Positions 8,234 to 60,888 of a stretch of 64,000 bases of DNA are shown one piece after another. The notes under the pieces are model-generated. The model made no database searches. It had not been told where the DNA came from and was given only the letters and a program-made list of their open reading frames with translations. The position numbers and the translations under genes are program-made. The DNA comes from Candidatus Daviesbacteria bacterium (lineage in GTDB: Bacteria; Patescibacteriota; Microgenomatia; Daviesbacterales; UBA10151), in NCBI GenBank assembly GCA_016176335.1, contig JACOXI010000003.1, positions 386,477 to 450,476 on the forward strand, in the 5' to 3' direction. Position 1 is the first letter of the stretch, and each line of letters begins with the position of its first letter.

Positions 8234-8240
8234 TACTAAT

Positions 8241-44856: not shown

Positions 44857-46738
44857 GCTTTTCTCGTACCTGTTCGGTAACGTTGTACATCTCTTTATTT
44901 TGTAGGGCAAATGCATGAATTCTGTCAATTGTTGTCGGAATTGGTTTACGGCCTTGTTTAATTAGGTATCTTCCATCATAAACAGAGGAAAGTATGCTTT
45001 CATATTCATTGACGACCATGAATGTGCTGTAATCCCAGTTTCTGGTATTGTAGAATATGGAGGCTCTTCCGTAGAAACCAAAACGTATTGCTTCAGCAAT
45101 TTCGGCACTTTGTTGGTCGGTCAGCAGCAAGAAAATATTCAACCCATCTCTATCGATTTTGGAGACTTCGGTTATGATTATATTCCAAAATTTGGTATCA
45201 ATTTGCTTACTTCTGTAAGTTGCAACATAGGTTAAATAATCGTTTGCAAACATAACGTGCATAAATATAAAAAGTACGATTAGCAAATAAGTGATTCCTA
45301 ATAAAAAAAATTTTCTTTTTTTATTTAAATAATCTATCGTAATAAACGAAACTACTGCCATCCAGATTGCGAGACCTGCTCCTTGTTGAACAGAATACCT
45401 TCCCCAGGTAAGTATGATTCCATATGGACTTATAATCCATGGAAACAGTATGAAAGTAAACATCCATCCCAGTCCTAACAAAAGCATTAGGGCAATAAGT
45501 GGTTTAGTATTTTTGAGTAAGAAAAATAACCATACGGAAAAAATAATAGTAAATCCGCCAACGAGAGCAAAGGCAACTCTCGGGTATGAAAAAGTGTTTA
45601 TATTAACTTTTTGAAGGAGATAGATAAATAATATCCAAAAACATAAATTTAAAATATACAAAAAAGAAACCTTTTTTTTAATTCTTGCGAAATAAAGAAC
45701 AATATATGTTAATCCACCGTATACCAGAGAAATGGGAAGTATATAAGAAAAGAAGGTGAAAGGGGGTCTCCAAAGTAGAGATATTTGTGAAAAAGGAATT
45801 TTGTTCCAAAGCATATCCGGCATAATATAATTTCCCAGTGTTGCAATTGGATCAATAATTAAATCCGACTGTCCGGCAATAAATTTTTGCCTTAAAAAGT
45901 CAATTCCTTCCAACGATCTTTGGGTATTCCACTCCCTTGCACCGTAGCCGTTGCCTATAAAGAAAGGCCCGATTTCAAAACCTTTTATTAAATGGTCTCT
46001 GATTAAAAAATACAAATCACTAACCCCGTATAGAATAATGTAGTTAGTAACGATAAGAATAAATATTCTTAGGGAAGCAATTTTCAGATTAAACTTTTTT
46101 CCGTCGATCAGCCACCAGCCCAGCTCTAAAATTAAAATAAGGGGTATCATTCCGTGCATTCTAGGGGGGGATACAACAAGAGCGCTCGCAAATAGCAAAG
46201 CAGAAATTATTAGTGGTTTGATTTTTAAAGTTTCTTTTGCTTTAAAGTACCAAACAAAGAATAATGTCAATATGCCGATACCTAATATATGGTTGTAATT
46301 GAAGGCCCAGTCCGTTGCCTCTATCCCCAAATAAGTTACCGCAAAAAAACAGCTTGCCAAAAAAGCTATCATAGTTTCCTCGGTAATCTTTTTGAGAAGA
46401 TAGAAAAGACTCAAAGCGACAAGTACTCTTGATATAAATGATGCGAGAAAATAATAAAATGGTTCATATCCAAAGACTCTACTGATGATGGAGAGGAAAA
46501 AATAATGAGGGCAGTATGTACAAAAATAAGTAAATGGGTTAAAGTAACTAGCCTCTTTTCTAATATCGAAGATTCCCCAAATAAGATAGTGTATCCCCCA
46601 ATCATCCCCTCCTAATGCTAAGTTGAAAGCGCCCCTTACAGTAATAAATGATAAAAAAGAGATAAAAATAATTAAGAGAACAAATGCACTGAAAGATTTT
46701 TTTCTGTAAGTTGTTTCTAGTTTCTGTTCTAATTGCAT
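44795..46738 (-). CDS. Polytopic membrane protein, GT-C-like candidate (GGDDW loop motif), paralog of ORF 40327
   Basis: 647 aa with about 14 TM. Contains a C7 tract on the coding strand (G7 on + at 46164-46170). Confidence 0.45.
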   Translation of the reverse strand: MQLEQKLETTYRKKSFSAFVLLIIFISFLSFITVRGAFNLALGGDDWGIHYLIWGIFDIRKEASYFNPFTYFCTYCPHYFFLSIISRVFGYEPFYYFLASFISRVLVALSLFYLLKKITEETMIAFLASCFFAVTYLGIEATDWAFNYNHILGIGILTLFFVWYFKAKETLKIKPLIISALLFASALVVSPPRMHGMIPLILILELGWWLIDGKKFNLKIASLRIFILIVTNYIILYGVSDLYFLIRDHLIKGFEIGPFFIGNGYGAREWNTQRSLEGIDFLRQKFIAGQSDLIIDPIATLGNYIMPDMLWNKIPFSQISLLWRPPFTFFSYILPISLVYGGLTYIVLYFARIKKKVSFLYILNLCFWILFIYLLQKVNINTFSYPRVAFALVGGFTIIFSVWLFFLLKNTKPLIALMLLLGLGWMFTFILFPWIISPYGIILTWGRYSVQQGAGLAIWMAVVSFITIDYLNKKRKFFLLGITYLLIVLFIFMHVMFANDYLTYVATYRSKQIDTKFWNIIITEVSKIDRDGLNIFLLLTDQQSAEIAEAIRFGFYGRASIFYNTRNWDYSTFMVVNEYESILSSVYDGRYLIKQGRKPIPTTIDRIHAFALQNKEMYNVTEQVREKLKVDLEALKKGTLSLPQTFQ

Positions 46739-46761
46739 TTTATGAGGTAGAATTCTACAGT

Positions 46762-47997
46762 ATGAAAAATACTAAACCTTCAATTTATATTATCGCACTC
46801 TCTTCTTTGGGACAAGGACTTTCCGGAGGAGACAGGATATATATTGAGCTTGCAAGAAGATGGAGTAAAAAGCACCTAGTGACTGTTATCGTTTGGGAAG
46901 AAGGACGGGAGATGTTGCAAAGACAACATCTAATAGATAATGGACAATGGTTAATGATTAGAACTCTGAAGATGGGGGGATGGTGTAAATTTGGCTTTAT
47001 TATCTGCTACTTTGCACGGATCATTCGCTCTTTAATTTTTGCTTTGACATTTGATGTATCAACTATCAATTATCAACCATCAGCCACGATTTATTCTGCT
47101 TCTGAATTTTGGATGGATTCACTGCCGGCTTTTATACTTAAGGTGCGCTTCTCAAAAATGACTTGGGCAGCGGCTTGGTATCAGACCGCCCCAAACCCGT
47201 TTAAAGGTTTTGCCGAAGGGAAAAGAGATAAAGTTTATAGATTTAGGACATTTTTATATTGGTTTGTCCAACTTCCTATCAAGCCTCTGATTTCCAAATT
47301 TGCAGATTATGTTTTGGTTAGTAATCAGAAGGAGAAGAGACAATTTCCTAAACTTGTAAAAAAAAATAAGGCAATAGTTTTTTTGGGAGCAGTTGATACT
47401 GAAGCAATATCGGAGTATATCAAAACACACAAGAGAATAATAGATAAAAAATATATTGGAGTTTTTCAGGGAAGATTTCATCCTCAAAAAGGCGTTGTCG
47501 AGTTAATTGATATTTGGAAGTTAGTAACTAAAAAAATACCGCATGCAAAACTGGCGATGATCGGGGACGGGCCTTTAATGGCAGATGTGAAGGAAAGAAT
47601 TCGAAACCTTGGACTTGAAGATAATGTTATCTTATTTGGATATCAATATGACGGCGATAAAAAATATTCAATTTTTCAAAGCAGTAAAATAGTTGTACAT
47701 CCGTCATTTTATGATAGTGGCGGTATGGCAGCAGCAGAGGCAATGGCTTTTGGGCTACCTGCTGTTGGCTTTGATTTAAAAGCATACACCTCCTATTATC
47801 CAAAGGGTATGATAAAAGTTGCAGTTGGAGATCTTCAGGCTTTTGCAAAGAAAATATTAGAACTTAATGAAAATGAAATTTTATATCATCAACTGGGGCT
47901 AAACGCAAAAGCAATGATCATGAGTCAATTTTCCTGGAATAAAAGGGCAAAGGAGATACTATCCACCTTAGAAATTCAAAATCAAAAGTTAAATTAA
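46762..47997 (+). CDS. GT4-family glycosyltransferase
   Basis: GGMAAAEAMAFGLPAVGFDLKAY. The preferred ATG at 46762 lies after the divergent membrane gene; the track start at 46711 is a TTG inside it. Confidence 0.65.
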   Translation: MKNTKPSIYIIALSSLGQGLSGGDRIYIELARRWSKKHLVTVIVWEEGREMLQRQHLIDNGQWLMIRTLKMGGWCKFGFIICYFARIIRSLIFALTFDVSTINYQPSATIYSASEFWMDSLPAFILKVRFSKMTWAAAWYQTAPNPFKGFAEGKRDKVYRFRTFLYWFVQLPIKPLISKFADYVLVSNQKEKRQFPKLVKKNKAIVFLGAVDTEAISEYIKTHKRIIDKKYIGVFQGRFHPQKGVVELIDIWKLVTKKIPHAKLAMIGDGPLMADVKERIRNLGLEDNVILFGYQYDGDKKYSIFQSSKIVVHPSFYDSGGMAAAEAMAFGLPAVGFDLKAYTSYYPKGMIKVAVGDLQAFAKKILELNENEILYHQLGLNAKAMIMSQFSWNKRAKEILSTLEIQNQKLN

Positions 47998-47998
47998 G

Positions 47999-48637
47999 AT
48001 GACAAATACATTCCCGCCCACATACAAATTAATACTCAAGCACCTGTTACCAAAAGGATTCCTAAAGGTTTTGGATTTAGGTTGTGGAGTTGGTGCTGCC
48101 GCAGAGGTTTTAAATAAGGGCAAGATCCATCAGTTTTTCGGTGTAGATATATACGAGCCTTATCTTAAGATATGCAGAAGGAGTGGGTTTTATAAAAAAG
48201 TTACAAAGGCTGATTTAAGAAATATAAATTTTAACAAAAAAAGCTTTGATGTGGTGATTTTATTTCAGGTGATAGAACACCTTAACAAAAAAGATGCAAA
48301 AAAACTCATCCGAAAAGCCGTGAGTGTTGCAACTAAGGCAGTGCTTATTTCCGTCCCAAATGGTCATTGTGATCAGGGAGTTTACGATGGAAATATTTAT
48401 AATAAACACAAATCAACATGGAATGCTGCGGATTTTAAAAAAATGGGCTTTAAAGTATATGGCCAAGGTTTAAAAATCATATACGGTTCTCGCAGTTACG
48501 AGGGTCGGATAGGGGCAAGCTGGTGGCAGAAAATAGTTGTCCCGCTTTCAATAATACTCCTTCCATTGGTGCTGATTTTTCCCGAGATTGCAGTGCAGCT
48601 GATAGGTGTAAAATATTTAGGAGGTGCAAGTAAATGA
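47999..48637 (+). CDS. Class I SAM-dependent methyltransferase
   Basis: VLDLGCGVGAAAEVL and ILFQVIEHL. Confidence 0.65.
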   Translation: MTNTFPPTYKLILKHLLPKGFLKVLDLGCGVGAAAEVLNKGKIHQFFGVDIYEPYLKICRRSGFYKKVTKADLRNINFNKKSFDVVILFQVIEHLNKKDAKKLIRKAVSVATKAVLISVPNGHCDQGVYDGNIYNKHKSTWNAADFKKMGFKVYGQGLKIIYGSRSYEGRIGASWWQKIVVPLSIILLPLVLIFPEIAVQLIGVKYLGGASK

Positions 48638-51600
48638 TGCATATTTTAAAAAAATTTGACACAAAAGTTATTTTCGTTCTTTTTTTCATTTCACTGTTTT
48701 TGGTTTTGATTTGGTTGCCGAACAATAAAATTATTGCCGGCGGAGATATAGGCATCCCAACTTATGCTCCTCAAAAACAACTTGAGGAGGTTACAAGTTC
48801 CTGGTGGGAATCTCACGCCACAGGAATCTCAAGCCCTGTAACTTATACCGCAGTACCCTTTTATTTAACCCTTTCGATACTGGAAAAACTGGGAATGGAT
48901 TCGGGCATGACTCAAAAAATAATCTTCTTTACCATTCTTTTTGGAAGTTCCTTAAGTATCTATTATTTGGGATTGAACTTTTCATTTAATAAATGGACGT
49001 CTCTTATTGCATGCTTGTTTTATATCTTTAATCTAACCTCCTTATCGGTTTGGCAAAGGGGAGTGCATAACGCCATGTTAATGCTTCTTTTGGTACCTCT
49101 TTCTCTTTTAATTTTGGTCTGGGGAATCAAAAATAAAAAATATGTTTCTATCTTAATAATAAATGTAGTTTCTTTTTTACTAGCCTATGTGTTTGGCGCA
49201 TTAGGTTTTCTGTTCTCTCTTTGGTTGCTCTGGACAGTTTACATAGCGGTAATATTGTTTGATTCTTGGAGTGATAAATTGGCAAGAAGATTTCTTTTAA
49301 CCTATTTTTTTCTATTGATAATTTCTTGGATTGGAAGTAATTTGTGGTGGATTACTAACCTTTTACAATCAAGCAATTATACCTTGGGTCAATTTACCCA
49401 AGGTGAACTAATGAGTAGAGGGTCGGATGTTTTAGCGGCTTTAAAGCCTTACCATGAGCCCTCAATTATATTACGGGGCTTAAGCAGATTTTATCTATAT
49501 GTTGTTCGTGACTGGGGGGAAATATATTCACACCCTCTTTTTATAATGCTTTCCTGGGTTCCCACACTGATAATCTTTTATACCGCCCTCATAAGAACCA
49601 ATTATAAGTTGACTCCTTGGAGATTTTTAATTGTATTGACTGTTTTAGTGCTGGCATTATCTAAAGGAGTGAACCCTCCTTTGGGAGAGTTAAACAGAAT
49701 TCCTTTTGATCTGTTTCAATTCCTTGCCCCGCTTCGAAACACATATGAGAAAGTGGGAATCCTTTTAACTATACCTTTCTCGTTGCTTTTTGCTTTAGGT
49801 ATTAATCAAATTATTTCAATCTTTAAAGCAAAAAAAATGGATTATCTACACTTACCACTACTAGTTGTAATCGTTATGTGTTTAATAGTTTTAGTCTGGC
49901 CGCTTTGGCTGGGTAAGTTATTTGTAAGCGAGGGAAGAAAGTATGCAGTTTCTATCCCGTCATATTATTCGCAGGCCAACAGTTGGATAAAAAGTAAAAT
50001 AGAAGCAGATGATACCAGAATTCTGCATCTTCCGTTATCTTGGGGTGAATCTATAGATTATAACTGGAATTATACAGGTGTCGAGCCAAGTCAATATTTT
50101 TTTAATGGATCATCCATCGGGTATCAAATCGGTGTACCTCCCGTCGACTCAAGAATAAGAGATATTCTACTGCTTATACATAAACAAGATACACTAAATA
50201 TTCAAAAAGCGCTTGTGTCATTAAATATTGGCTGGGTTGTTGTCCACAATGAAACATTGTTCAGAGACAGAATCTTAGAAAATCCAGAAAGAATTGATGC
50301 TTGGCTTGCCACCAAGCCACCATTTATAGAATACAAAACAGATTTTGGACCGCTTTCAATATGGAGGGTTAAAGATGAATATCGAGCAAGACATTTTTAT
50401 TCATCAGGTAAGTTAGTTCGTAGAGGTATACCCAATCCAACTTCTTCTTTAAATGTCTGGAATGAGATAAATAATTTAAATGATAGCTTCCTGACTGAAA
50501 TTCAAAAGGAACAAAGTTTGGATAAATTTATCTTTAAAAATACAATTATCCCGACAAGTAAAATAAAATATTCACCTTTAGGGTTGATAGATAAAGAAAC
50601 AGCGATAAATGATATCGCAAAAGTTGGTTTCCTGCCTGATTCACCCCTTTTTGTACTAACCCTGTTTAAGGAAAGTTTATTTTCCTTCTTAAATCAAAAC
50701 GATCGGGTCATAAACTGTTTTGATTTAAGCGGGAAGAGACTGAAAGAAGTTGTACTTTTAAAAAGAGGTCGGAGGTTGGAAGAAGCAGATAAAGCAATAA
50801 AAAGATATGAAAATCAGTTTAAAGAATGTATTAGTGTGGGGAAAGATACATTGAGCATTTATTTAAATACCCCCCAGGCGAGAGATTTAATTCTTAGTCA
50901 GCTAATCAGACAAAAAAACATTTTGGAAAATGAGTTTGACGAACAAAGCTTAAAGGAGGCTGTAAATCAAGTTAAAGATATTTTGAATGAATATCTTGCT
51001 AAGTTAGGCTTGGCACCAAAATATAATCCTGTCAAACAGAATTTAGGTAAGCAATTGATTGTTTTTGATTACCTTATTAACAAAAAAGGGGATTATTCAG
51101 TAGAGCTTAAGGAAGTAGACGAACAACTAATCAAAAATCCACCCCAAATTATTCAGATTGATAATAAAGCAGTTGATTTTTCCGCTGCAGAGGTTGGTGT
51201 AAATATCATTAGGTATCCGCAAATTAGACTGGATGAGGGGTTTCATGAAATCCAGCTGGAAACAGGTGAGGAGAAAAATATCCTAACTGATCTTTATGAT
51301 AACAAAAAACTACATCCGGATCCAGGGTTTACTTATCAAAAAGATCCGGAAAGTGGGGAAGGTTACTTCCGGGGGGCTCCCTCCAACGCAATAGTCAGTT
51401 TAATATTTGATATTCCAAATGTAAGTATTGAGGATATATATGAGGTGAGTTTTGATATTTATCATGTAGGTGGCACAGCACCTATGTTTATTATGACTCA
51501 TGATACTGACCCGACCGATTCCCATGGGTTAATAAAGCCCGCAGTCAGCAGAAATATTGATTTTAGTACTTATCCATCAGGATGGAGAAATGTGAAATTA

Positions 51601-52101
51601 AGTTACACCCCGGTATTAAATGCTACCTCTGCCAGAATGATTTTTATGTTATCCCCGCAAACGGGATTAAATAATCCCACAGAAGTATTATTAAAAAACA
51701 TCAGCATTAGAAAAGTTTTTCCTTATCAGCTGGTATTGGAGGAGGATAATCCATCTGTAATGCCACTGGGTACTGCCGAAATAAAATCTGTAAAGCTAAA
51801 TCCTACGGAGTACGAGATTAATTTAACAAATCAAAAATTACCGTATATCTTGATTTTTTCAGAAACTTTTCACCCACTTTGGCAAATAACAGATTCTTCC
51901 GGTAATAAAATAGATTTGCCTCATTTTAGCATCAATGGATTTGCAAACGGTTGGTTTGTTGATAAAGAGCTTGCTGACAGAATTAAGGTAAAGTTTATGC
52001 TTCAGAATGCCCTGACACAAGGTATTATTATCGCTGTTATATTTTTTATCTTTTCGTCTATTTTTCTTATCTATTTGGATCAACGAGGAAAAATAAAATG
52101 A
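48634..52101 (+). CDS. Giant (1155 aa) GT-C-like membrane protein with a long extracytoplasmic region and a YfhO/AftD-like C-terminal module
   Basis: The N-terminus has IAGGDIGIPTYAPQ... and there are more than 13 TM. The C-terminus has FHPLWQITDSSGNKIDLPHFSINGFANGWF plus a TM anchor. Paralogous in architecture to ORF 36764. ATGA overlap with the MTase. Confidence 0.55.
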   Translation: MMHILKKFDTKVIFVLFFISLFLVLIWLPNNKIIAGGDIGIPTYAPQKQLEEVTSSWWESHATGISSPVTYTAVPFYLTLSILEKLGMDSGMTQKIIFFTILFGSSLSIYYLGLNFSFNKWTSLIACLFYIFNLTSLSVWQRGVHNAMLMLLLVPLSLLILVWGIKNKKYVSILIINVVSFLLAYVFGALGFLFSLWLLWTVYIAVILFDSWSDKLARRFLLTYFFLLIISWIGSNLWWITNLLQSSNYTLGQFTQGELMSRGSDVLAALKPYHEPSIILRGLSRFYLYVVRDWGEIYSHPLFIMLSWVPTLIIFYTALIRTNYKLTPWRFLIVLTVLVLALSKGVNPPLGELNRIPFDLFQFLAPLRNTYEKVGILLTIPFSLLFALGINQIISIFKAKKMDYLHLPLLVVIVMCLIVLVWPLWLGKLFVSEGRKYAVSIPSYYSQANSWIKSKIEADDTRILHLPLSWGESIDYNWNYTGVEPSQYFFNGSSIGYQIGVPPVDSRIRDILLLIHKQDTLNIQKALVSLNIGWVVVHNETLFRDRILENPERIDAWLATKPPFIEYKTDFGPLSIWRVKDEYRARHFYSSGKLVRRGIPNPTSSLNVWNEINNLNDSFLTEIQKEQSLDKFIFKNTIIPTSKIKYSPLGLIDKETAINDIAKVGFLPDSPLFVLTLFKESLFSFLNQNDRVINCFDLSGKRLKEVVLLKRGRRLEEADKAIKRYENQFKECISVGKDTLSIYLNTPQARDLILSQLIRQKNILENEFDEQSLKEAVNQVKDILNEYLAKLGLAPKYNPVKQNLGKQLIVFDYLINKKGDYSVELKEVDEQLIKNPPQIIQIDNKAVDFSAAEVGVNIIRYPQIRLDEGFHEIQLETGEEKNILTDLYDNKKLHPDPGFTYQKDPESGEGYFRGAPSNAIVSLIFDIPNVSIEDIYEVSFDIYHVGGTAPMFIMTHDTDPTDSHGLIKPAVSRNIDFSTYPSGWRNVKLSYTPVLNATSARMIFMLSPQTGLNNPTEVLLKNISIRKVFPYQLVLEEDNPSVMPLGTAEIKSVKLNPTEYEINLTNQKLPYILIFSETFHPLWQITDSSGNKIDLPHFSINGFANGWFVDKELADRIKVKFMLQNALTQGIIIAVIFFIFSSIFLIYLDQRGKIK

Positions 52102-52406
52102 TTTTAATAGAATCGCTTGTAATTTTATTACCTATGATTGTCTTCTATATACTTGGTGCGCAAAATAAAAATCTGCACCCTGAATTTTTGATTAATTTTA
52201 TCTTCATAGTTTTATTTATTAGTTTGTTTATTTTTAGAAGCGGTAACATTCGTCATATGTATCTTGCCTTTGCACTACTCTTACTGGCAGTTTTTGCCAG
52301 TGTATTTGGACTGAATAATTTTCTCTATATTTCAAGCAGTTTGTCCTTAGGCTTATTAATACTTGGGATTATTAATATGTTGTTGTTTAAAAAAGAGGAG
52401 GCATGA
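52098..52406 (+). CDS. Small (102 aa) hydrophobic membrane protein of unknown function
   Basis: Three to four TM helices; ATGA overlaps on both sides. Confidence 0.4.
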   Translation: MILIESLVILLPMIVFYILGAQNKNLHPEFLINFIFIVLFISLFIFRSGNIRHMYLAFALLLLAVFASVFGLNNFLYISSSLSLGLLILGIINMLLFKKEEA

Positions 52407-54007
52407 GAAAAAATCTAGTTTCAGCAATTGTGGTAACAAGGAATAGAAAGCAAGATTTAATAAGATGTATAGGGTCTTTAAGTCATTCCGAATATAATCA
52501 ACTTGAAATGATTGTAGTTGATAACGCTTCCTTTGCCCCTGTTTCAACTTGGCTAAATAGGCAATACCCAAGAGTCAAAGTCATAACAAGCAATAAAAAT
52601 TTAGGGGCTGCCGGAGGGAGAAATTTAGGTTTTAAATTTGCAAAAGGGGAGACCTTTCTTTTTATGGATGATGATTCTTTAGCGGATAGAACAATGGTCG
52701 GTGAGCTTGCCAAAATACTCAAGGGTAGAAAAGATGTTGGAATTGTTCAGCCAAAAATTTACGACATGGAAAGAAAAAATGTGTTACAGGGAATCGGCTG
52801 TGACATTAATTTGCTCACAGGCAGAGTTTCTGCTGTAGGCATTAGAGAGAAAGATCTTGGACAATACGACAGGCTGATAGAAATTTCTGGAGTGGGCTGT
52901 ATTTGGATGGTCGAAAGAAAAGTAATTGAGAAAATTGGTGGATATGATGAAGACTACTTTATTCCATATGAGGATTTGGATTTTTCATTTAGAGCAAGAA
53001 TGGCTGGCTTTAAGATTTTATTTGTTCCTACTGCAAGAGCCTGGCATAAAGGAATAAAGTCAACGTTTATCAGTCCGCTTATTGATTATATTGGTATTAG
53101 AAATAAAGAAAGGGCATACAGAGTAAGTCGAAACAAGATAATTTTTATGAGAAAAAATGCACCTTTGTTAAATTTTCTAATTTTTATTTTTGTTATTAAT
53201 CCAATATATTTACTCGTTCATTCAATTTTAATTTCCTTAACCGGACGTTTTGACGTATTAGTAAAATACTGGTTGGGTTTTATATCGGGTATATGGTATG
53301 CAGTCAAATATGAAAATCTAATTCTTAAGCTTTACAATGATATAGATAAGCAACTAATAGGGTTCAAATATCATCTGATGGTTTGGACAGATCCTATCTG
53401 TTGGGTGATTGATAAATCCGCAAAGAACATTCTGGATGTTGGAAGCGGACTAGGTATACCGATGGAATTAATAAGAAGGAGAATGAAAGTTCAATATGCA
53501 GTTGGGATAGACAAATTTAGGCCGTATATAGATTATCTAAAAAGTAAGAAAGTACATGATAAGTATATTTTAGGAGATGTAAGAAAAATGAGATTTAGAG
53601 CAAAATCTTTTGATGTAGTTTTTGCATCAGATTTAATTGAACACTTGCCAAAAAAAGATTCATGGAAGTTGATAGAAAATATGGAGAGAATTGCTAAAAG
53701 ACAAGTAATTGTTACGACATCCTTAGGCTACTTTTTTCATCCGGCAGTTGATGGAAACCCACTTCAGTTACATAAATCGGGTTTTCACCCGCAGGAATTT
53801 GAAATAAAGGGATATAAGACTTTTAAGTACGGAAGAAAAGAAATACTCGGAACGAATGGATGGGTGCATACTATTAATTTCGATTCTTTAAAAAAGTTAT
53901 TATTTTTGGTTAATTCTTTATTTTTTCCACTTTTTATAATTTTTCCCAATTTCGGTAATTATTGCTTTATTGCTTACAAAAATACGGAAAATAATAAGTA
54001 TAATTAG
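52403..54007 (+). CDS. Fusion protein: N-terminal GT2 glycosyltransferase, central TM helices, C-terminal class I SAM methyltransferase
   Basis: N-terminus VSAIVVTRNRKQDLIRCIGSL...EMIVVDNAS...FMDDDS. C-terminal domain ILDVGSGLGIPMEL...VFASDLIEHL. Confidence 0.65.
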   Translation: MRKNLVSAIVVTRNRKQDLIRCIGSLSHSEYNQLEMIVVDNASFAPVSTWLNRQYPRVKVITSNKNLGAAGGRNLGFKFAKGETFLFMDDDSLADRTMVGELAKILKGRKDVGIVQPKIYDMERKNVLQGIGCDINLLTGRVSAVGIREKDLGQYDRLIEISGVGCIWMVERKVIEKIGGYDEDYFIPYEDLDFSFRARMAGFKILFVPTARAWHKGIKSTFISPLIDYIGIRNKERAYRVSRNKIIFMRKNAPLLNFLIFIFVINPIYLLVHSILISLTGRFDVLVKYWLGFISGIWYAVKYENLILKLYNDIDKQLIGFKYHLMVWTDPICWVIDKSAKNILDVGSGLGIPMELIRRRMKVQYAVGIDKFRPYIDYLKSKKVHDKYILGDVRKMRFRAKSFDVVFASDLIEHLPKKDSWKLIENMERIAKRQVIVTTSLGYFFHPAVDGNPLQLHKSGFHPQEFEIKGYKTFKYGRKEILGTNGWVHTINFDSLKKLLFLVNSLFFPLFIIFPNFGNYCFIAYKNTENNKYN

Positions 54008-54011
54008 ATTT

Positions 54012-55196
54012 ATGAAAAGGTTGGAAATATTTAAAATTTTTATAGTTTGGAGGGTGGTATTATTTGCAGTGTCAGCTTTGGCAATTCTTTTTATTACTGA
54101 TTTTGGAGTAAGGTTTCCTTATTATAATACGGTATTGGAGCCAACTGGACTACCTTCTTGGGTATGGGGCTTTGGAAATTTCGATGGGGTGCATTATTTA
54201 AGAATTGCTCAAGATAGTTACAGCGCGCAGTATTCGCAGGCTTTCTTTCCTTTGTACCCGTTACTCATAAGAATATTTACGGAAGCGAATATTCTTTTAC
54301 CCAAAGATCCCAATCTTGACACGCGAATTTATGTAGATCCAACCTTTTTCTATAGCGGATTGATACTTTCAAATCTAATTTTACTAATAGCTTTATATTT
54401 TTTTTACAAATTAGTTATCCTCGATTACAAAAAAGAGATTGGCCTAAAATCTATTATATTACTGCTTGCTTTTCCGACTGCTTTTTATTTCGGGTCGATA
54501 TATACCGAATCTTTGTTTTTGCTTCTTGTAGTTGGATTTTTCTATTTAATGAGAAAACAAAATTTTATTGCCGCAGGAGTATTGGCAGGATTAGCCTCCG
54601 CCACCAGAATTTTCGGACTTTTGCTTCTACCTGTGTTTCTTGCCGAACTATACTTAAAAATTAAGAATAAAGAGATATCGTTAAAAAGCGAACAATTTGT
54701 CAAAGCTCTGATTGGGATTTTACTTGCCCCTACGGGTATCCTGCTTTATATGCTTTATCTACGGTTTGAATTTGATAATCCCCTATATTTTTTAACTTCC
54801 CAGCCACTGTTTGGGGCAGAAAGGAGAAATGAAATTATTCTATTGCCGCAAGTTCTGTTCAGGTACATTAAGATTTTTTTAACTGTTTCCCCAATTTCAT
54901 TACCTTTTTTCAATGCTTTTTTAGAATTTTCTTTTACTCTGATAGCTTTAGGTCTATTGTTTGTTTCATTTAAGAAAATTAGATTCAGTTACTTTATATT
55001 CACTTTTGGTAGTTTGCTACTGCCAACACTTACAGGAACCCTCTCTTCGATGCCAAGGTATTCTTTAATGTCGTTTCTTATGCTCCCATTTTTAGTACGG
55101 TTTTCAGGAAGACATTTTAAATTAGTGGTGGTTTCGTTTATACTCTTACAAATGATCCTAGTTGGTCTTTTTACCAGAGGATATTGGGTGGCTTGA
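54012..55196 (+). CDS. PIG-V/GT76-like GT-C mannosyltransferase-family membrane protein
   Basis: FDGVHYLRIAQDSYSAQYSQAFFPLYPLL resembles the WDxxHxLxIAExGY...AFFPLxPL signature of PIG-V-type mannosyltransferases; more than 8 TM. The alternative start at 53970 lies within the previous gene. Confidence 0.5.
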   Translation: MKRLEIFKIFIVWRVVLFAVSALAILFITDFGVRFPYYNTVLEPTGLPSWVWGFGNFDGVHYLRIAQDSYSAQYSQAFFPLYPLLIRIFTEANILLPKDPNLDTRIYVDPTFFYSGLILSNLILLIALYFFYKLVILDYKKEIGLKSIILLLAFPTAFYFGSIYTESLFLLLVVGFFYLMRKQNFIAAGVLAGLASATRIFGLLLLPVFLAELYLKIKNKEISLKSEQFVKALIGILLAPTGILLYMLYLRFEFDNPLYFLTSQPLFGAERRNEIILLPQVLFRYIKIFLTVSPISLPFFNAFLEFSFTLIALGLLFVSFKKIRFSYFIFTFGSLLLPTLTGTLSSMPRYSLMSFLMLPFLVRFSGRHFKLVVVSFILLQMILVGLFTRGYWVA

Positions 55197-55198
55197 AA

Positions 55199-55858
55199 AT
55201 GAAAATATATTTAGTCATACCGGCATATAATGAAGCCAAAAGAATTGACAATTTGCTTGAAAGTCTTAAGGGGGTTAACCTTCCTGTCATTTTGGTTGAT
55301 GACGGATCTTTTGATAAAACTTTTCAGTTGGCAAAAAAATATCCGGTTACTGTTTTGCGGCACAAAGTAAATCTGGGAAAAGGTGCAGCGCTTAAAACCG
55401 GTTGCGAAGCGGCAATTCTGCTAGGTGCTAGTGCTGTAATTTTAATGGATTCTGATGGGCAGCATAAAGCTTCTGATTTGCCTAAGTTTGTTGGAAAAAT
55501 TAGCATGGAAACATATGATGTTGTTTTTGGTTCAAGGAATTTAAATATAGGAGTTCCTTTGGTGCGATATATTGGGAATAAAATAGAATCAGTATTAATC
55601 TCGTTATTATATGGAATCTATATTTCAGATCCGATATGTGGTTTCAGGGCAATGACTAAAAAAGCATACCAAAAAATGAAGTTGGAATCAGCGGGATATG
55701 ATATTGAAACAGAAATGGTGATTAAGACTAAACATTTTGGTTTCAAGTATTGTGAGGTGCCTGTGGAAACTGTATACTATGATAAGTTTAAAGGGGTGAC
55801 AATTTTGGATGCGTTGGGAATATTTACTAATATATTAAAATGGAAAATATTTAAATGA
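55199..55858 (+). CDS. GtrB/Dpm1-like GT2 polyprenol-phosphate sugar synthase
   Basis: IYLVIPAYNEAKRI...VILMDSDGQH...DPICGFRAMTKKAYQ...GYDIETEM. Confidence 0.7.
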   Translation: MKIYLVIPAYNEAKRIDNLLESLKGVNLPVILVDDGSFDKTFQLAKKYPVTVLRHKVNLGKGAALKTGCEAAILLGASAVILMDSDGQHKASDLPKFVGKISMETYDVVFGSRNLNIGVPLVRYIGNKIESVLISLLYGIYISDPICGFRAMTKKAYQKMKLESAGYDIETEMVIKTKHFGFKYCEVPVETVYYDKFKGVTILDALGIFTNILKWKIFK

Positions 55859-56211
55859 TCTTAGGACTACAAGTTATTGCTTTAGTATTTGCATTAGTAA
55901 TGATTTATTTTGCTTACCTTCATTATAGAAGGGGTGAAATCAACGGCTTGGAAATTTTATTTTGGCTTACTGCGTGGATGGGAGCAATATTTATAGCAAT
56001 ATTTCCTGAAGCTTTTCGTGCTTTCTCTGCAACAATTGCAGTTAATAGAGCCTTTGACCTTGCTATGATTGGAGCATTTATATTGGTTATTCCAACTGTT
56101 TATGTTTCATATATCAGAACAAAAAGAATAGAAAAGAAAATAGAAGATTTGGTAAGAAAGGAATCTTTAAAACCTTTGGATGAGCTACAGAAAAACAGAA
56201 AGTCTACCTAA
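55855..56211 (+). CDS. DUF2304-like small membrane protein
   Basis: YLHYRRGEINGLEILFWLTAWMGAIFIAIFPEAF... then a charged C-terminal tail. This pattern accompanies GtrB-like GT2 genes. ATGA overlap upstream. Confidence 0.5.
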   Translation: MILGLQVIALVFALVMIYFAYLHYRRGEINGLEILFWLTAWMGAIFIAIFPEAFRAFSATIAVNRAFDLAMIGAFILVIPTVYVSYIRTKRIEKKIEDLVRKESLKPLDELQKNRKST

Positions 56212-56980
56212 GATTTCAATTGTGATCCCCTCCTATAATAAAGCCTCTTATATAGAGGCTACTTTGAGCTCGATAATAAATCAAGGGTACCCAAATCTGG
56301 AAGTTATTATTCAGGATGGCGGATCAAAAGATGGGACTGCAGAGATAATAAAACGATATGCGAAAAAGTATCCAGAAATTTTTCGATGGTCTTCAAAAAA
56401 GGATAAGGGCCAATTGGATGCAATAAATAAAGGGCTTGAAAAATCAAGCGGTGAAATATTGACATACATTAATGCCGATGATGTTTATAAAGATGGCTCG
56501 TTGTTAGAAATAGGCAGATATTTCCAGAAGAATACAAGTACTCTTTGGGTGACAGGCTATGGAGATATTATAGACAAAGATGGGAAAATTATTTCTCGAT
56601 TTGTGACCAGTTATAAAAATACCCTTCTTGATATTAATAAATTCTTTCTACTTATTATTGTTAATTTTATTACTCAACCTTCAACATTTCTAAGCAGAAA
56701 AGCATATCTGCAATTTGGACCTTTTACAGGTACAAGAAATTATGTAATGGAATATAATTTATGGCTGAAAATAGGAAAGTCTAAGATGCCTTATATAATC
56801 AAAAAAACTTTATCCAGTTTTAGGTTAACTGCTGACAATATTTCTTCTACCTCAGCAAAGGAACTATTAAAAGTGGACAATAAAATTACAAAAAAATATA
56901 CCAACAACGGTTTACTTTTTGCTTTACATAAGCTTCATAATCTTGGTAGAATTTTCATGTTAAAATTTTTAAAAAAATGA
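56180..56980 (+). CDS. GT2-family glycosyltransferase (paralog of ORF 62245)
   Basis: LPKISIVIPSYNKASYIEATLSSIINQGYPNLEVIIQDGGSKDGT...KDKGQLDAINKG...NADDVY. Confidence 0.7.
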   Translation: MSYRKTESLPKISIVIPSYNKASYIEATLSSIINQGYPNLEVIIQDGGSKDGTAEIIKRYAKKYPEIFRWSSKKDKGQLDAINKGLEKSSGEILTYINADDVYKDGSLLEIGRYFQKNTSTLWVTGYGDIIDKDGKIISRFVTSYKNTLLDINKFFLLIIVNFITQPSTFLSRKAYLQFGPFTGTRNYVMEYNLWLKIGKSKMPYIIKKTLSSFRLTADNISSTSAKELLKVDNKITKKYTNNGLLFALHKLHNLGRIFMLKFLKK

Positions 56981-57840
56981 GAAGTAAACAAAATCGGGAG
57001 GTTTTGCAGTTAGAATTAAAAGCCACAGAACTGCGCAAGCAAATTTTAGAGATGATTGTTACAGCTCGTGGAACACATATTGCCAGTGCATTTTCAATAG
57101 TTGAGTTAGTACTGTATCTTTACAAGAACGTTTTACGTATTGACCCAAAAAATCCAAATGAAGAAAAAAGAGATAAATTTGTCCTAAGCAAAGGACATGG
57201 TTGTGCCGCACTGTACGTTGTTTTAGCTGACCTTGGTTTTTTCCCAAAAAAACTCCTCAATACATTTACTTCTTTTGGTAGTATCTTGGGAGGACATCCA
57301 GATAGATCAAAAATACCAGGAGTTGAAGTTTCAACCGGGTCCTTGGGTCATGGGTTTTCTGTAGCGGTCGGATTTGCCCTGGCAAATAAAATGAATCACT
57401 CTAAATATCGGGTTTACTGTCTTGTTGGCGATGAAGAATTAAATGAAGGAAGTAATTGGGAAGCAGCCCAGATAGCAGCACATCACAAATTGGATAATCT
57501 ATCGTTAATAATTGATGAAAACAAGCTTATGATAAGTGGCTTTATGAAGGATATTTTAGATTCCTTTTCACTTAAAGAAAAATTTCGTGCCTTCGGATGG
57601 AACACGATCGAAGTTAATGGGCATAATTTCTCTGATTTAAGCGAAAAATTCAAACTAGCGCCAATTAAAAATGGTAAGCCGATAGTCATGATCGCTGATA
57701 CTATAAAGGGGAAAGGGGTAAGTTTTATGGAAAATAAAAAAGAGTGGTATAGTGTTCTTCCAGACGAAGAACAAATGGATGTAGCAGTAGAAGAGTTAAA
57801 CAGCAATATTGAAAAGCTAAGAGAACAGCTGGAAATATAA
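56977..57840 (+). CDS. Transketolase, N-terminal (TPP-binding) subunit
   Basis: SKGHGCAALYVVLADLGFF...GSLGHGFSVAVGFALA...CLVGDEELNEGSNWEAAQIAAHHKLDNLSLIIDENK. ATGA overlap with the GT2 upstream. Confidence 0.85.
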   Translation: MRSKQNREVLQLELKATELRKQILEMIVTARGTHIASAFSIVELVLYLYKNVLRIDPKNPNEEKRDKFVLSKGHGCAALYVVLADLGFFPKKLLNTFTSFGSILGGHPDRSKIPGVEVSTGSLGHGFSVAVGFALANKMNHSKYRVYCLVGDEELNEGSNWEAAQIAAHHKLDNLSLIIDENKLMISGFMKDILDSFSLKEKFRAFGWNTIEVNGHNFSDLSEKFKLAPIKNGKPIVMIADTIKGKGVSFMENKKEWYSVLPDEEQMDVAVEELNSNIEKLREQLEI

Positions 57841-57870
57841 GCAAAGTTTGAATTTTAATGGATTAAAATT

Positions 57871-58794
57871 ATGAGAGATTCATATGTAAGTGCCATATAC
57901 AATGCAACTAAAATCAACAGTAATGTACTTTGTATTGTTGGTGATATCGGCTCTTTTCTGCTCCGACATTATATTGAAGACTTTCCTGCAAATTATCTTA
58001 ATCTAGGGGCGGCTGAAGCCAACATGGTAGGAGTAGCTGCTGGGCTTGCCATGTCTGGAAAAATTCCCTTTGTATATACAATAACTCCGTTTATTACAGC
58101 TAGATGTTATGAACAGATCAAGCTTGATGTTTGCCATAATAGGGCAAACGTAAAACTTGTTGGAGTTGGAAGTGGCGTTTCCTATGGAACAATGGGATCG
58201 ACCCATCATTCTCTCGAAGACATTGCAATTATGAGAGTTCTTCCAAACATGACAATTTTTTCTCCCTCGAATAAGCAGGAGGTTGAAGAGGCGGTATTTG
58301 CTGCCATGAAACTCAAAGATCCTGTGTACATAAGGTTAACGTTGACTGCGAATTCGACTGATAAATATAGAGGTAAGTTTGAAATTGGAAAGGCTCGCAT
58401 TGTTCGAAAAGGACAAAATGCTGCAATTATGGCCACCGGCGATATGGTAAGCATTGCAATTAATGCGGCGAAAGCTCTAGAAAAAAATAATATTAATTGT
58501 TTTGTAATTGACTTTCCTACTTTAAAGCCGATCGATGAGTCTTTAATAAAGAAGTTATCTGAAAAGTGCAAGGCAATTATTTCTATAGAAGAGCACAGTG
58601 TAGTTGGGGGATTAGGCAGTACCATTGGTTCTGTACTATCGCAGTATCCAAATAACAAGACTTGCTTCAAAATACTTGGATTTAATGATGTTTTCTGTGG
58701 CGAATACTCCAGCGATAAATTAAAGTTATTTGAAGAATATGGTCTTTCAACAAGAAACCTCGTAAAAACAATGCTTGACCTTTTCAATTCATGA
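57871..58794 (+). CDS. Transketolase, C-terminal (pyrimidine-binding) subunit
   Basis: LGAAEANMVGVAAGLAMSGKIPFVYTITPFI...YGTMGSTHHSLEDIAIMRVLPNMTIFSPSN. Confidence 0.85.
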   Translation: MRDSYVSAIYNATKINSNVLCIVGDIGSFLLRHYIEDFPANYLNLGAAEANMVGVAAGLAMSGKIPFVYTITPFITARCYEQIKLDVCHNRANVKLVGVGSGVSYGTMGSTHHSLEDIAIMRVLPNMTIFSPSNKQEVEEAVFAAMKLKDPVYIRLTLTANSTDKYRGKFEIGKARIVRKGQNAAIMATGDMVSIAINAAKALEKNNINCFVIDFPTLKPIDESLIKKLSEKCKAIISIEEHSVVGGLGSTIGSVLSQYPNNKTCFKILGFNDVFCGEYSSDKLKLFEEYGLSTRNLVKTMLDLFNS

Positions 58795-59015: not shown

Positions 59016-59947
59016 ACAAATCCAGGAAGAAGTTAACACTTGTTACAGGAGCGGGAGGACTCTTGGGATACGCCATTCGACAGCTCGCTCCCAAAGATAC
59101 TGATTATATCACCCGCAGTGATGGAGATTTAACTGATTTTGCAAAGACGAAAAAGATATTTCAGAAAATCAAGCCTAACCAGGTTATACATCTGGCCGCT
59201 GAAGTAGCAGGTATTGGAGGCAATATGATGCATTCAGGTAAATTTTTCAGAGATAATATTATGATTAACATAAATATCTTTGAGGCTGCACGGATAAACG
59301 GCGTTGATAAACTTATCTCATTTATGTCTACTTGTGTTTTTCCTGATAAATGTAAGTATCCTCTAAATGAAAAGGATATTCAAAGCGGCCCCCCGCATCC
59401 TTCAAACTTTGGATACGCTTACGCAAAAAGGATGCTGGAAGTACAAAGTGCTGCTTATCGCAAAGAATGGGGCTGTAATTTTATCGTAGCTATACCTACC
59501 AATATATATGGTGAAAATGACTTTTGGAATTTAGAAGATGGCCATGTGGTACCCTCATTAATTCATAAATGTTTTCTGGCCAAAAAGAATAAAGAAGATT
59601 TCATAGTGTGGGGAAGTGGCAGGCCGCTACGTGAATTTGTTTATTCGCAGGATGTCGCCAAACTAATCTTATGGGCGATAGATGAATATAATGAGGAATC
59701 TCCCATTATTTTTACCAATAGCAAGGAGAGTAGCATTAAAGACCTTGTTGATCTGGTTGTAAGGGAAGTAGGTTTTAAAGGTAAAGTAATTTTTGATAGC
59801 ACAAAACCTGAGGGGCAATTTAGAAAACCATCTGATAATAGCAAGCTAAAAAAGTATCTACCTAATTTCAAATTCACCCCGCTTGATAAAGGTATTAAAA
59901 ATACAGTTGAGTGGTTTATCAAAAACTATCCAAATGTTCGAATGTAG
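59009..59947 (+). CDS. fcl: GDP-L-fucose synthase (GDP-4-keto-6-deoxy-D-mannose 3,5-epimerase/4-reductase), eukaryote/TSTA3-like
   Basis: LTLVTGAGGLLG...IHLAAEVAGIGGNMMH...STCVFPDKCKYPLNEKDIQSGPPHPSNFGYAYAKRM...IPTNIYGENDFWNLEDGHVVPSLIHK...VWGSGRPLREF. From memory, this aligns closely along its whole length with metazoan GDP-fucose synthase. Confidence 0.75.
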   Translation: MSNKSRKKLTLVTGAGGLLGYAIRQLAPKDTDYITRSDGDLTDFAKTKKIFQKIKPNQVIHLAAEVAGIGGNMMHSGKFFRDNIMININIFEAARINGVDKLISFMSTCVFPDKCKYPLNEKDIQSGPPHPSNFGYAYAKRMLEVQSAAYRKEWGCNFIVAIPTNIYGENDFWNLEDGHVVPSLIHKCFLAKKNKEDFIVWGSGRPLREFVYSQDVAKLILWAIDEYNEESPIIFTNSKESSIKDLVDLVVREVGFKGKVIFDSTKPEGQFRKPSDNSKLKKYLPNFKFTPLDKGIKNTVEWFIKNYPNVRM

Positions 59948-59952
59948 CAGCA

Positions 59953-60888
59953 ATGAATAATAATAGAATACATCTTACTCCAAGAGATTTTGAGGTTGTT
60001 TTTCAGGATAATTTATCTGAATTCGTAAAGAAAAAAATTAAACACTTTAATTTCTTAGCCCAAATGGTATCTGTACAGGATAGAGATAAGATTTTGTTAA
60101 AAATCATAAAGACTCTTCTTGACCCACAGGTGGCCAAAGCCGGTAGGCATAGGCAGCTGCAATGGGAAAAAGGGTGGGCAGAAAATTTGAAAGCATTAAA
60201 GAGCCATAAAATCGAGTCAATAATTCCTCTTTATTTTGGCAAGTATAATGTTGTTAGGTGGAGACAGGAATTTTTAAGGCCAAGATCTTCAAACTTTGAG
60301 TACAATATGTTGGCAGTAATACAATATTGGTTATTCGATAAATATTTAAGATCTGCAGAGTGTATTTATGAGTTTGGTTGTGGCACTGGTCACAATCTGC
60401 TAAGAGTGAGGGAGATTAATCCAAAAGCACAAATTTGGGGACTTGATTGGACTCACTCCTCACAAGAAATTATCAAAATGATAAGTGCTGATAAAAATGA
60501 CTCCAGATTATTTGCCGATAACTTCGACTTTTCTAATCCCGACAAAAATTTCAGTCTAAACAAAAAGTCAGTAGTATACACTGTTGCTGCGCTAGAGCAA
60601 TTAGGAGATAATTTTCAGCCCTTCATTGATTTTTTATTGGAGAAGAAACCTGAGATTTGTTTACACATTGAACCAATTGCCGAATTACTTAACGAAGAAA
60701 ATCTAGTTGATTATTTATCGATACTTTATTTTAAAAAAAGAAATTATCTCAGCGGATTTCTATTAAAATTACGGGAATTGAAAGAAGCAGGGAAAATCAA
60801 GATTCACATGGCCAAACGTACTTTCATTGGTAGTTTATATATCGAAGGTTATTCTGTCGTTGTCTGGTCTCCTGTTTTTAAAACTTAA
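59953..60888 (+). CDS. Class I SAM-dependent methyltransferase
   Basis: IYEFGCGTGHNLLRV (motif I). The preferred ATG at 59953 follows the fcl stop; the track start 59911 lies inside fcl. Confidence 0.55.
   Translation: MNNNRIHLTPRDFEVVFQDNLSEFVKKKIKHFNFLAQMVSVQDRDKILLKIIKTLLDPQVAKAGRHRQLQWEKGWAENLKALKSHKIESIIPLYFGKYNVVRWRQEFLRPRSSNFEYNMLAVIQYWLFDKYLRSAECIYEFGCGTGHNLLRVREINPKAQIWGLDWTHSSQEIIKMISADKNDSRLFADNFDFSNPDKNFSLNKKSVVYTVAALEQLGDNFQPFIDFLLEKKPEICLHIEPIAELLNEENLVDYLSILYFKKRNYLSGFLLKLRELKEAGKIKIHMAKRTFIGSLYIEGYSVVVWSPVFKT

Follow-up and report, generated by a model that had tools for sequence, protein, structure and literature searches.

The open reading frame (ORF) at positions 52403 to 54007 of a 64,000-nt stretch of DNA from Candidatus Daviesbacteria bacterium (the window; all locus coordinates are counted from its first letter) encodes a protein of three parts, a family 2 glycosyltransferase (GT2) domain, a two-helix membrane hairpin and a class I S-adenosylmethionine (SAM)-dependent methyltransferase (MTase) with a hydrophobic anchor of its own. 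We think it fairly probable that this is a membrane-anchored bifunctional enzyme that acts at the cytoplasmic face of the membrane, where it would glycosylate and then methylate a lipid-linked glycan, and the product that it helps to build is most likely a methylated cell-surface glycan. Since multi-module proteins that unite glycosyltransferases with MTases are already known, the system as such is not of a new kind. Its uncharacterised side, confined to Patescibacteria in the searches run, is a membrane-integrated form of such a fusion, with a transmembrane (TM) hairpin, an anchored MTase and from zero to two fused MTase copies, set in an operon with AftD-like GT-C and small-protein genes and without the terminator machinery that relies on a transporter of the ATP-binding cassette (ABC) type.

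Architecture of the fusion protein

The fusion and its parts are as follows.

52403-54007, plus strand: GT2-TM-MTase fusion, 534 amino acids (aa), a single ORF
52421-53065, plus strand: GT2 (GT-A) catalytic domain, residues 7-221, with D40, DDD89-91 and ED190-191 (Pfam PF00535/PF13641/PF13632, alignment, Foldseek, PDB profile search)
53165-53308, plus strand: TM helical hairpin, residues 255-302, after a K/R-rich amphipathic helix at 235-252 (AlphaFold2, hydropathy, K/R count, GxxSG)
53411-53983, plus strand: class I SAM MTase domain, residues 337-527 (Pfam PF08241/PF13649, invariant residues, AlphaFold2, Foldseek)
53882-53941, plus strand: hydrophobic helix-turn-helix, residues 494-513, inside the MTase (AlphaFold2, KD17 hydropathy maximum 2.28)

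An earlier note, made from the sequence alone, had described this ORF as a fusion of GT2 domain, internal TM helices and class I MTase, and Pfam, AlphaFold2 and hydropathy all bear this out. The ORF list gives one continuous frame without internal stop or frameshift, the protein is 100% identical to the NCBI entry 'glycosyltransferase [Candidatus Daviesbacteria bacterium]', and at least 119 clusters of homologs (~505-545 aa, 45-77% identity), every source name among which is patescibacterial, keep the same collinear layout. The single ORF and its full-length conservation rule out a frameshift, which the note had raised as a possibility, or an assembly artefact as the source of the fusion.

Glycos_transf_2 (PF00535) matches residues 7-178 (E 7e-23; 81.8 bits against a cut-off of 23.3), the GT2_3 models carry the match on to about residue 221, and PF13641, PF13632 and PF10111 likewise exceed their own cut-offs on this half. 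In the C-terminal half, Methyltransf_11/25 (PF08241/PF13649) match residues 343-434 (E 3e-12) above their gathering scores (47.3 bits against 21.2 for PF08241), around the sequence ILDVGSGLG at residues 343-351, within which motif I (LDxGxGxG) spans residues 344-351. An alignment of 27 sequences, 46-77% identical to the window protein and used also as the AlphaFold2 input, shows that the catalytic residues of both halves are invariant: D40, D89-D91 (the DXD motif), E190-D191-x-D193, H215, K219, R237, N244 and K245 in the GT2 half, and L344-D345, G349 and G351 of motif I, D370, D392, D404 and E413-H414 in the MTase half, together with a family-specific N452/Q455/H457 motif. The first half thus belongs to GT2 by its profile match, its DXD and downstream ED acidic residues and its GT-A fold, and the second to the class I SAM-dependent MTases by motif I, the acidic residue D370 where strand 2 ends, its profile match and its seven-stranded Rossmann-like fold.

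The full-length AlphaFold2 model (mean predicted local distance difference test score, pLDDT, 89.1; predicted TM-score, pTM, 0.62) places two long helices between the catalytic domains, at 255-279 and 283-302 (pLDDT >90), and beyond them two short linker helices at 306-317 and 319-327. By family-averaged hydropathy the first long helix is strongly hydrophobic; the second, of a more amphipathic character, has the conserved packing motif GxxSG. Just N-terminal of the hairpin, residues 232-254 include eight K/R, and the linker is variable in length, being ~19 residues shorter in several homologs. Both catalytic domains are modelled on the same side of the hairpin and, because a hairpin gives an even number of crossings, both are placed in the cytoplasm. 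The MTase half modelled alone (pLDDT 93.5, pTM 0.89) accounts for the C-terminal hydrophobic stretch, which forms two helices, 494-506 and 508-513, that precede the final Rossmann strand (521-527). Since that strand follows, the chain must come back to the cytoplasm, which excludes a third crossing, and the modelled helix-turn-helix is probably a monotopic or re-entrant membrane anchor.

Acceptors of the two catalytic halves

Judging from sequence and structure comparison, the GT2 half most likely has a hydroxyl group and not polyprenyl phosphate as its acceptor; the hydroxyl would belong to a sugar in a lipid-linked intermediate or, possibly, to a lipid. Among the 25 NCBIfam matches listed of 36 for the fusion, the best are to enzymes with sugar acceptors, the rhamnosyltransferase TIGR01556 (residues 32-265), MftF, EpsD, PgaC, HpsN and GlfT1, all far under their cut-offs (74 against 200 bits for TIGR01556, 45 against 330 for GlfT1), and no polyprenyl-phosphate synthase model is among them. 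Foldseek relates the GT2 half to ppGalNAc-T2 (E ~6e-14) and GlfT2 (E 5e-13), with GlfT2 giving the longest structural alignment (~350 columns, at 16-18% identity). In a PDB sequence profile search, among the best 60 of 86 matches, only the ppGalNAc-Ts (query residues 6-221) and GlfT2 (14-217) cover the acceptor half with its ED motif; DPMS aligns over residues 3-114 only and GtrB does not appear. No affinity to GtrB, DPMS, ArnC or PpgS emerged from the sequence and structure comparisons. A true enzyme of that kind is encoded 1.2 kb downstream:

55184-56211, plus strand: PpgS-like polyprenyl-phosphate sugar synthase (GT2, 224 aa) with a DUF2304 partner (NCBIfam PpgS 115 bits, AglJ 96 bits; PF10066)

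This GT2, 55184 (genes are named by their first coordinate), matches only polyprenyl-phosphate sugar synthases, PpgS and AglJ. It is because the acceptor half of the fusion aligns only with hydroxyl-acceptor GT-A enzymes, whereas 55184 fits the polyprenyl-phosphate synthases, that we prefer a hydroxyl acceptor for the former. GT2 enzymes of the GlfT2, GlfT1 and WbbL type, whose acceptors are linked to polyprenyl diphosphate, share with the fusion the GT-A fold and DXD and ED motifs that align over the whole catalytic domain, but unlike it they have neither an integral TM hairpin nor an MTase.

The structural neighbours of the MTase half are 3cc8, a putative Bacillus MTase (Foldseek E 9e-12), phosphoethanolamine N-methyltransferases (N-MTs; E ~1e-10 for PfPMT), LahSB (E ~1e-10), the phosphatidylethanolamine N-MT 8ys9, TleD and the sugar O-methyltransferases (O-MTs) RebM and AtmM. 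All are generic matches (TM-score ~0.5-0.6, 15-19% identity), with N-MTs of phospho-bases and lipids, RiPP MTases and sugar O-MTs side by side; assigning a substrate by fold led nowhere, and neither homology nor fold points to one methyl acceptor. Context argues for a membrane-bound glycan, because the MTase is fused to a GT2, has its own anchor and is encoded in a locus of glycan genes only.

Fusion and fission among homologs

A HMMER search over 1.84 billion representative sequences returned 575 proteins at E <=1e-30. About ten of the 50%-identity clusters listed from it are collinear full-length fusions, and many other matches are either GT2+TM-only proteins of ~300 aa or MTase-only proteins of ~230 aa. 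We fetched 33 related loci with 10-kb flanks (numbered L001 onwards), one of which (L008) repeats the contig region of L001, and classified their ORFs against the window proteins; 22 are evaluable, distinct Microgenomates loci. The gene is fused in 15 of these, and in the other seven (L017-L023) GT2+TM is separate or alone (~301-318 aa). In L021 the GT2+TM and MTase genes share a 4-nt ATGA overlap and the split falls exactly at the linker, while the L011 protein (P0011) has a second MTase domain fused on, giving GT2-TM-MT-MT. Either half is otherwise joined only to further GT2 or MTase modules, as GT2-TM-GT2, GT2-MT-GT2, MT-MT or MT with an FkbM-type MT. Module shuffling has been described for glycan-assembly enzymes (PMC11231755), and this pattern of joining and splitting is good evidence that the two activities operate in one pathway on related substrates.

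In two loci (L022 10945-13659 and L023 8713-11382) and in proteins P0123, P0124, P0127 and P0128, GT2+TM carries ~580 extra C-terminal residues (880-900 aa in all) without Pfam match, and a separate MTase gene follows. Eight loci (L005, L009, L010, L015, L016, L019, L020 and L021) lie on contigs titled 'uncultured Gammaproteobacteria bacterium' from binchicken co-assemblies; they have the same Patescibacteria-type operon at ~50% protein identity, and the label looks like a placeholder or an error.

A conserved operon around the fusion

The genes that recur around the fusion have the following counterparts in the window.

33233-34249, minus strand: GT2+TM paralog of the fusion N-terminal half (30% identity over 284 aa, E 3e-30; hydrophobic segment at about residue 261)
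36764-39316, plus strand: second AftD-family GT-C, 850 aa (N-terminal 512 aa 26.5% identical to 48634, E 9e-36)
46711-47997, plus strand: GT4 of the conserved operon (Pfam PF00534)
47999-48637, plus strand: stand-alone paralog of the fusion MTase half, 212 aa (BLASTP 31% identity over 176 aa, E 2e-29)
48634-52101, plus strand: AftD-like GT-C giant, 1155 aa (24-29% identity over ~1130 aa to carriers of PF11847, GT-C_AftD)
52098-52406, plus strand: small membrane protein, 102 aa (ORF; syntenic family)

Across the related loci the recurring order is a 36764-like AftD-family GT-C, GT4, GT2+TM, an optional 47999-like MTase, the fusion, a further optional MTase and one or two AftD-like genes. The GT4 is 46-58% identical to 46711 and lies upstream of the fusion in 20 of the 22 loci. 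The GT2+TM protein (~300-345 aa) is a paralog either of the fusion N-terminal half or of 33233, homologs of which stand directly upstream of the fusion in L003, L012, L015, L019 and L021; homologs of 47999 take that place in L004, L005, L007, L009, L013, L017 and L023. The optional MTase after the fusion (214-242 aa) is 48-55% identical to the fusion C-terminal half. A module holds up to three paralogous anchored MTases. An AftD-like gene (1000-1200 aa) follows within two genes in 20 of the 22 loci and often overlaps the fusion stop codon, and most related loci have a homolog of 36764. The window contains the same genes in a permuted order, GT4 46711, MTase 47999, AftD-like 48634, the small ORF 52098 and then the fusion, and successive genes from 46711 to ~57840 overlap at their start and stop codons.

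The AftD label of 48634, which itself falls under the Pfam threshold for the AftD model, is given because its homologs carry PF11847 and its topology agrees: as in mycobacterial AftD, an N-terminal GT-C membrane domain (~10-12 TM helices) is followed by a large extracytoplasmic domain and a C-terminal TM helix. Its membership of the AftD family is thus by transitive homology. The L003 homolog of 36764 also carries PF11847. The setting differs from that of AftD in that no gene of the decaprenylphosphoryl-arabinose pathway (UbiA-type DPPRS, DprE1/E2) is seen in the window and the organism belongs to the Patescibacteria instead of the actinobacteria.

Nearly every AftD-like gene has behind it a gene for a small membrane protein of ~102-120 aa with 3-4 hydrophobic helices, which in most cases overlaps the stop codon of the AftD-like gene (examples are L001 14970-15302 and 18553-18894, L003 15692-16018, and L004 15670-16008 and 19449-19784). 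The family has a conserved C-terminal motif, GSxGxG...YLPxLxKxGYxEKL, and its divergent member in the window, 52098, overlaps with the AftD-like stop codon at one end and with the fusion start codon at the other. No Pfam family, GtrA and SMR included, matched the small protein in a search to E 5; it could be an accessory subunit of the GT-C enzyme or a flippase for a lipid donor.

Other methyltransferases of the window

Besides the fusion, the earlier note had counted six further MTases. Five, 47999 among them, are solid class I enzymes by Pfam, and the sixth (59911, given by the note as 59953) is no more than probable. The genes not yet listed are these.

32398-33231, plus strand: soluble class I MTase, 277 aa (PF08241, MT_11, E 6e-22)
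41859-43958, minus strand: three consecutive MTase genes, 41859-42416 (PF13489, MT_23), 42413-43180 (PF13489, MT_23) and 43161-43958 (PF13578, Methyltransf_24, E 1e-17)
59911-60888, plus strand: probable MTase, 325 aa, ATG at 59953 (sub-threshold matches to four MTase Pfam families around a motif I, EFGCGTG)

Only 47999 (Pfam MT_11, E 9e-15) is a specific paralog of the fusion MTase half, with which it shares a DGN..HKS motif and the hairpin, more hydrophobic in its case (KD17 2.75 at residues 179-195). Homologs of 32398 occur at 45-49% identity in L002, L013, L018 and L020. The three minus-strand genes belong to different subfamilies and have no curated NCBIfam assignment, and the description of 43161 as TylF-like, or of the TylF/MycF type, is not supported: PF13578 is its only match at E <=0.001, it has no NCBIfam match and its best PDB match stands at E 0.23. 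The candidate 59911 scores 22 bits to MT_31, under the cut-off of 27, and found no significant relative in the PDB sequence search; on sequence it is a probable but unproven MTase, and its upstream neighbour 59009 is a GDP-fucose-synthase-like reductase (227 bits to Fcl).

None of the seven MTases reaches any curated NCBIfam cut-off, whether for quinone or for other named families. The quinone models UbiE, UbiG and MenG, which the note had offered as the competing assignment, score 27-64 bits against cut-offs of 103-216 (for 32398, UbiE 63 against 216 and MenG/UbiE 63.8 against 158; for 42413, UbiG 48.5 against 103; for the fusion, UbiG 26.8 against 103). A role of the MTases in a glycan pathway is very likely, because the window consists of glycan genes throughout, the two halves are fused or adjacent and the other fusions involve only GT2 and MTase modules. 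A methylated glycan is likely, but the extensive O-methylation of sugars envisaged in the note is an inference, the MTase fold being generic. Seven MTases in one locus are not the rare signature that they were taken for, as related loci carry ~2-4 per 21 kb.

A model for coupled glycosylation and methylation

According to the model that we favour, the GT2, an inverting GT-A enzyme, and the MTase would both work in the cytoplasm, tethered to one another by the membrane hairpin and the linker of variable length, with the helix-turn-helix dipping the MTase domain into the membrane surface. With a nucleotide sugar as donor, the GT2 would glycosylate a hydroxyl on a glycan intermediate that is bound to the membrane and probably polyprenyl-linked. 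Methylation of the new sugar or a neighbouring one by the tethered MTase would come next, and the anchored paralog 47999 may add a further methyl group. The intermediate would presumably then be flipped, the candidates for this step being the Wzx-like proteins 3330 and 24247, and outside the membrane the AftD-like protein and other GT-C enzymes would elaborate the glycan with polyprenyl-phosphate sugars supplied by the PpgS-like/DUF2304 pair. In the assembly of lipomannan and lipoarabinomannan, cytoplasmic GT4 and GT2 steps likewise precede external GT-C steps.

Several points weigh against this model. To our knowledge no member of the fusion family or of the operon has been studied experimentally, and a literature search on Patescibacteria/CPR (Candidate Phyla Radiation) glycosylation, AftD in CPR and GT-MT fusions in CPR found no paper on the system. 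Among the top neighbours of the MTase half, sugar O-MTs stand beside phosphoethanolamine and phosphatidylethanolamine N-MTs, so that the fold does not demonstrate a sugar hydroxyl as methyl acceptor, and with a pTM of only 0.62 the full-length model does not set how the two active sites are placed relative to one another. Pfam revealed no initiating phosphoglycosyltransferase (Bac_transf or Glycos_transf_4) in the window; with no ABC-transporter ATPase found there either, initiation and export must have their genes elsewhere or follow an unconventional course. Finally, a GT2 with an anchor of one or two helices beside a GT-C is also the layout of GtrB-type synthases of lipid donors (PMC11127046).

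The last point leads to the alternative that survives best, which we nevertheless consider unlikely: that GT2+TM charges polyprenyl phosphate with a sugar, the anchored MTase or MTases methylate it in the cytoplasm, the small protein flips it and the AftD-like GT-C transfers it to a surface glycan. The locus does resemble the GtrB/GtrA/Gtr(GT-C) and PpgS-Rv3632-Rv3779 systems in its triad of GT2 with a one- or two-helix anchor, small membrane protein and GT-C (PMC11127046), a PpgS-like/DUF2304 pair lies 1.2 kb downstream as a counterpart of the mycobacterial one, and the cytoplasmic GT2, its anchor and its GT-C neighbour fit the description of GtrB. The almost constant neighbour of the fusion, often in translational coupling with it, is an AftD-like GT-C, after which comes the small protein of 3-4 helices; MTases with membrane anchors of their own are what would be expected for a monosaccharide embedded in the membrane by its lipid; and, SAM being confined to the cytoplasm, the scheme would account for O-methyl sugars that are added outside. 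However, the acceptor half of the GT2 matches only hydroxyl-acceptor enzymes, with DPMS and GtrB as described above, and the listed NCBIfam matches place it outside the polyprenyl-phosphate synthase subfamily into which 55184 falls. The invariance of E190 and D191 suits a catalytic base that works on a hydroxyl; the operon always has a GT4 together with another GT2-TM enzyme, in keeping with stepwise assembly in the cytoplasm; and the small protein lacks a GtrA or SMR signature. The Gtr and PpgS systems have no known MTase, and a three-component route in which a polyprenyl-phosphate sugar is O-methylated before flipping, which we rate just as unlikely, would be without known precedent.

The earlier note had likened the fusion to enzymes in which a methyl cap terminates glycan chains. 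On this view, for which we see a little less prospect, the MTase would methylate the non-reducing terminal sugar, halt elongation and so set the chain length. WsaE of Geobacillus stearothermophilus, which acts on the S-layer glycan, combines an N-terminal MTase with two rhamnosyltransferase domains (PMC2943079), and ORF6 of Klebsiella pneumoniae O7 combines an MTase, a kinase, a carbohydrate-binding module, a coiled coil and two GT2 modules (PMC11231755). Single polypeptides with both activities are therefore documented, class I SAM MTase and GT2 modules meet in one chain that acts on a lipid-linked glycan at the cytoplasmic face, as we propose here for the fusion, and polymerising enzymes occur in the rhamnosyltransferase and GlfT families, with which the GT2 half has a relationship. 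The differences lie in the machinery. WsaE and ORF6 are soluble or peripheral and have the MTase at the N-terminus, whereas that of the fusion is C-terminal with its own anchor and is linked by a TM hairpin. WsaE, WbdD and ORF6 work in ABC-transporter pathways, to which the Klebsiella systems add a coiled-coil ruler (PMC2943079, PMC11231755); in those of WsaE and ORF6 a Wzm/Wzt transporter recognises the cap, whereas the conserved partners of the fusion are GT-C enzymes. A search for ABC ATPases, as Walker A and LSGGQ in one ORF, gave none in the window and none in the 33 fetched loci with their 10-kb flanks, nor were there ABC matches by Pfam in the genes of L001-L003 or in those ORFs of the window that reach 110 aa. 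The only flippase candidates are Wzx-like, the linker consists of the hairpin and two short helices of variable length in place of a coiled-coil ruler, and up to three anchored MTases per module suggest several methylations and not one cap. The precedent for a terminating cap accordingly does not carry over to this locus.

It is improbable, and more so than either of the foregoing, that the fusion is a processive enzyme in which GT2 and MTase alternate to build a polymethylated homopolymer, as mannosylation and 3-O-methylation alternate in the synthesis of the mycobacterial methylmannose polysaccharide. The longest structural alignment of the GT2 half is with the processive polymerase GlfT2, and the covalent tether and extra MTase copies would fit repeated cycles, but there is no direct evidence of processivity, the likeness to GlfT2 is at the level of the fold only, and the single-step GTs of the operon (the GT4 and the second GT2-TM enzyme) better fit a defined oligosaccharide. 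Least probable of all is a methyl acceptor other than a sugar, whether a protein or a lipid or phospho-base group such as a phosphoethanolamine substituent or a phospholipid acquired by scavenging: the MTase domain is membrane-anchored and has among its top Foldseek neighbours the Plasmodium phosphoethanolamine N-MTs and the bacterial enzyme 8ys9, but this likeness is generic and extends to RebM and AtmM, a GT2 is fused to the domain or encoded next to it in every context seen, the domain's other fusions involve only GT or MT modules, and Pfam scans of the window revealed no phosphoethanolamine transferase.

Patescibacteria are tiny and mostly episymbiotic, with a surface that presumably mediates contact with the host, and we know of no experimental work on the surface glycans of Microgenomates or other members of the phylum. 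Our analysis defines for this lineage an operon of two GT2-TM enzymes, a GT4, up to three membrane-anchored MTases and AftD-like giants with their small partners. With a methylated glycan as the product, O-methyl sugars could mark such organisms in environmental samples, and the fused enzyme would serve as a compact tool with which to couple glycosylation to methylation on lipid carriers. Should the sugar instead be methylated as a lipid donor, a new step would be added to the repertoire of extracytoplasmic glycosylation.

Glycan genes in the rest of the window

The window as a whole is, on sequence annotation, given over to glycan machinery. It holds the two Wzx-like flippases, ~13 GT2 and ~7 GT4 enzymes, ~13-15 GT-C-type membrane proteins (PMT_2, GT87, PIG-V, PTPS-related, AftD-like and unannotated giants), a nucleotide-sugar dehydrogenase and five short-chain dehydrogenase/reductase (SDR) family epimerases or dehydratases, one of them GDP-fucose-synthase-like. 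Directly after the fusion lies a further GT-C enzyme:

53970-55196, plus strand: PIG-V/GT87-like GT-C (PF04188, E 7e-12), overlapping the 3' end of the fusion by 38 nt

The PpgS-like/DUF2304 pair that follows is kept at 64-68% identity in L002 and L019, recalls mycobacterial PpgS-Rv3632 and is likely the donor supply for the many GT-C enzymes. Further on, at 56977-58794, a transketolase split into N- and C-terminal halves as separate genes sits inside the glycan operon, as it does at L002 17830-19579 and L026 13918-14730; elsewhere it adjoins a 61147-like SDR enzyme and, in L002, a DegT aminotransferase, a context that suggests the synthesis of chain-extended or branched sugars.

At the other end of the window, 896-22429 is dense in GT-C-type transferases (GT87-like 896, PTPS-related 2162 and PMT_2-type 10261, 14758, 16134, 17577, 19212 and 20813), of which four or five are tandem paralogs. 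ORF 10261 also scores above the cut-off for the STT3 N-terminal domain (31 against 24.5 bits), a hint that it may resemble an oligosaccharyltransferase. The large membrane proteins at 4808-10259 and, on the minus strand, 40327-41901 and 44795-46738 have no Pfam or NCBIfam match, and a Pfam search of the large unannotated membrane proteins to E 5 gave nothing usable. The C-terminal half of 4808 (residues 504-1141) is paralogous to 8241 (30% over 672 aa), and 40327 and 44795 have their N-terminal 215 aa in common (33%); these proteins may be further GT-C or polymerase-like enzymes.

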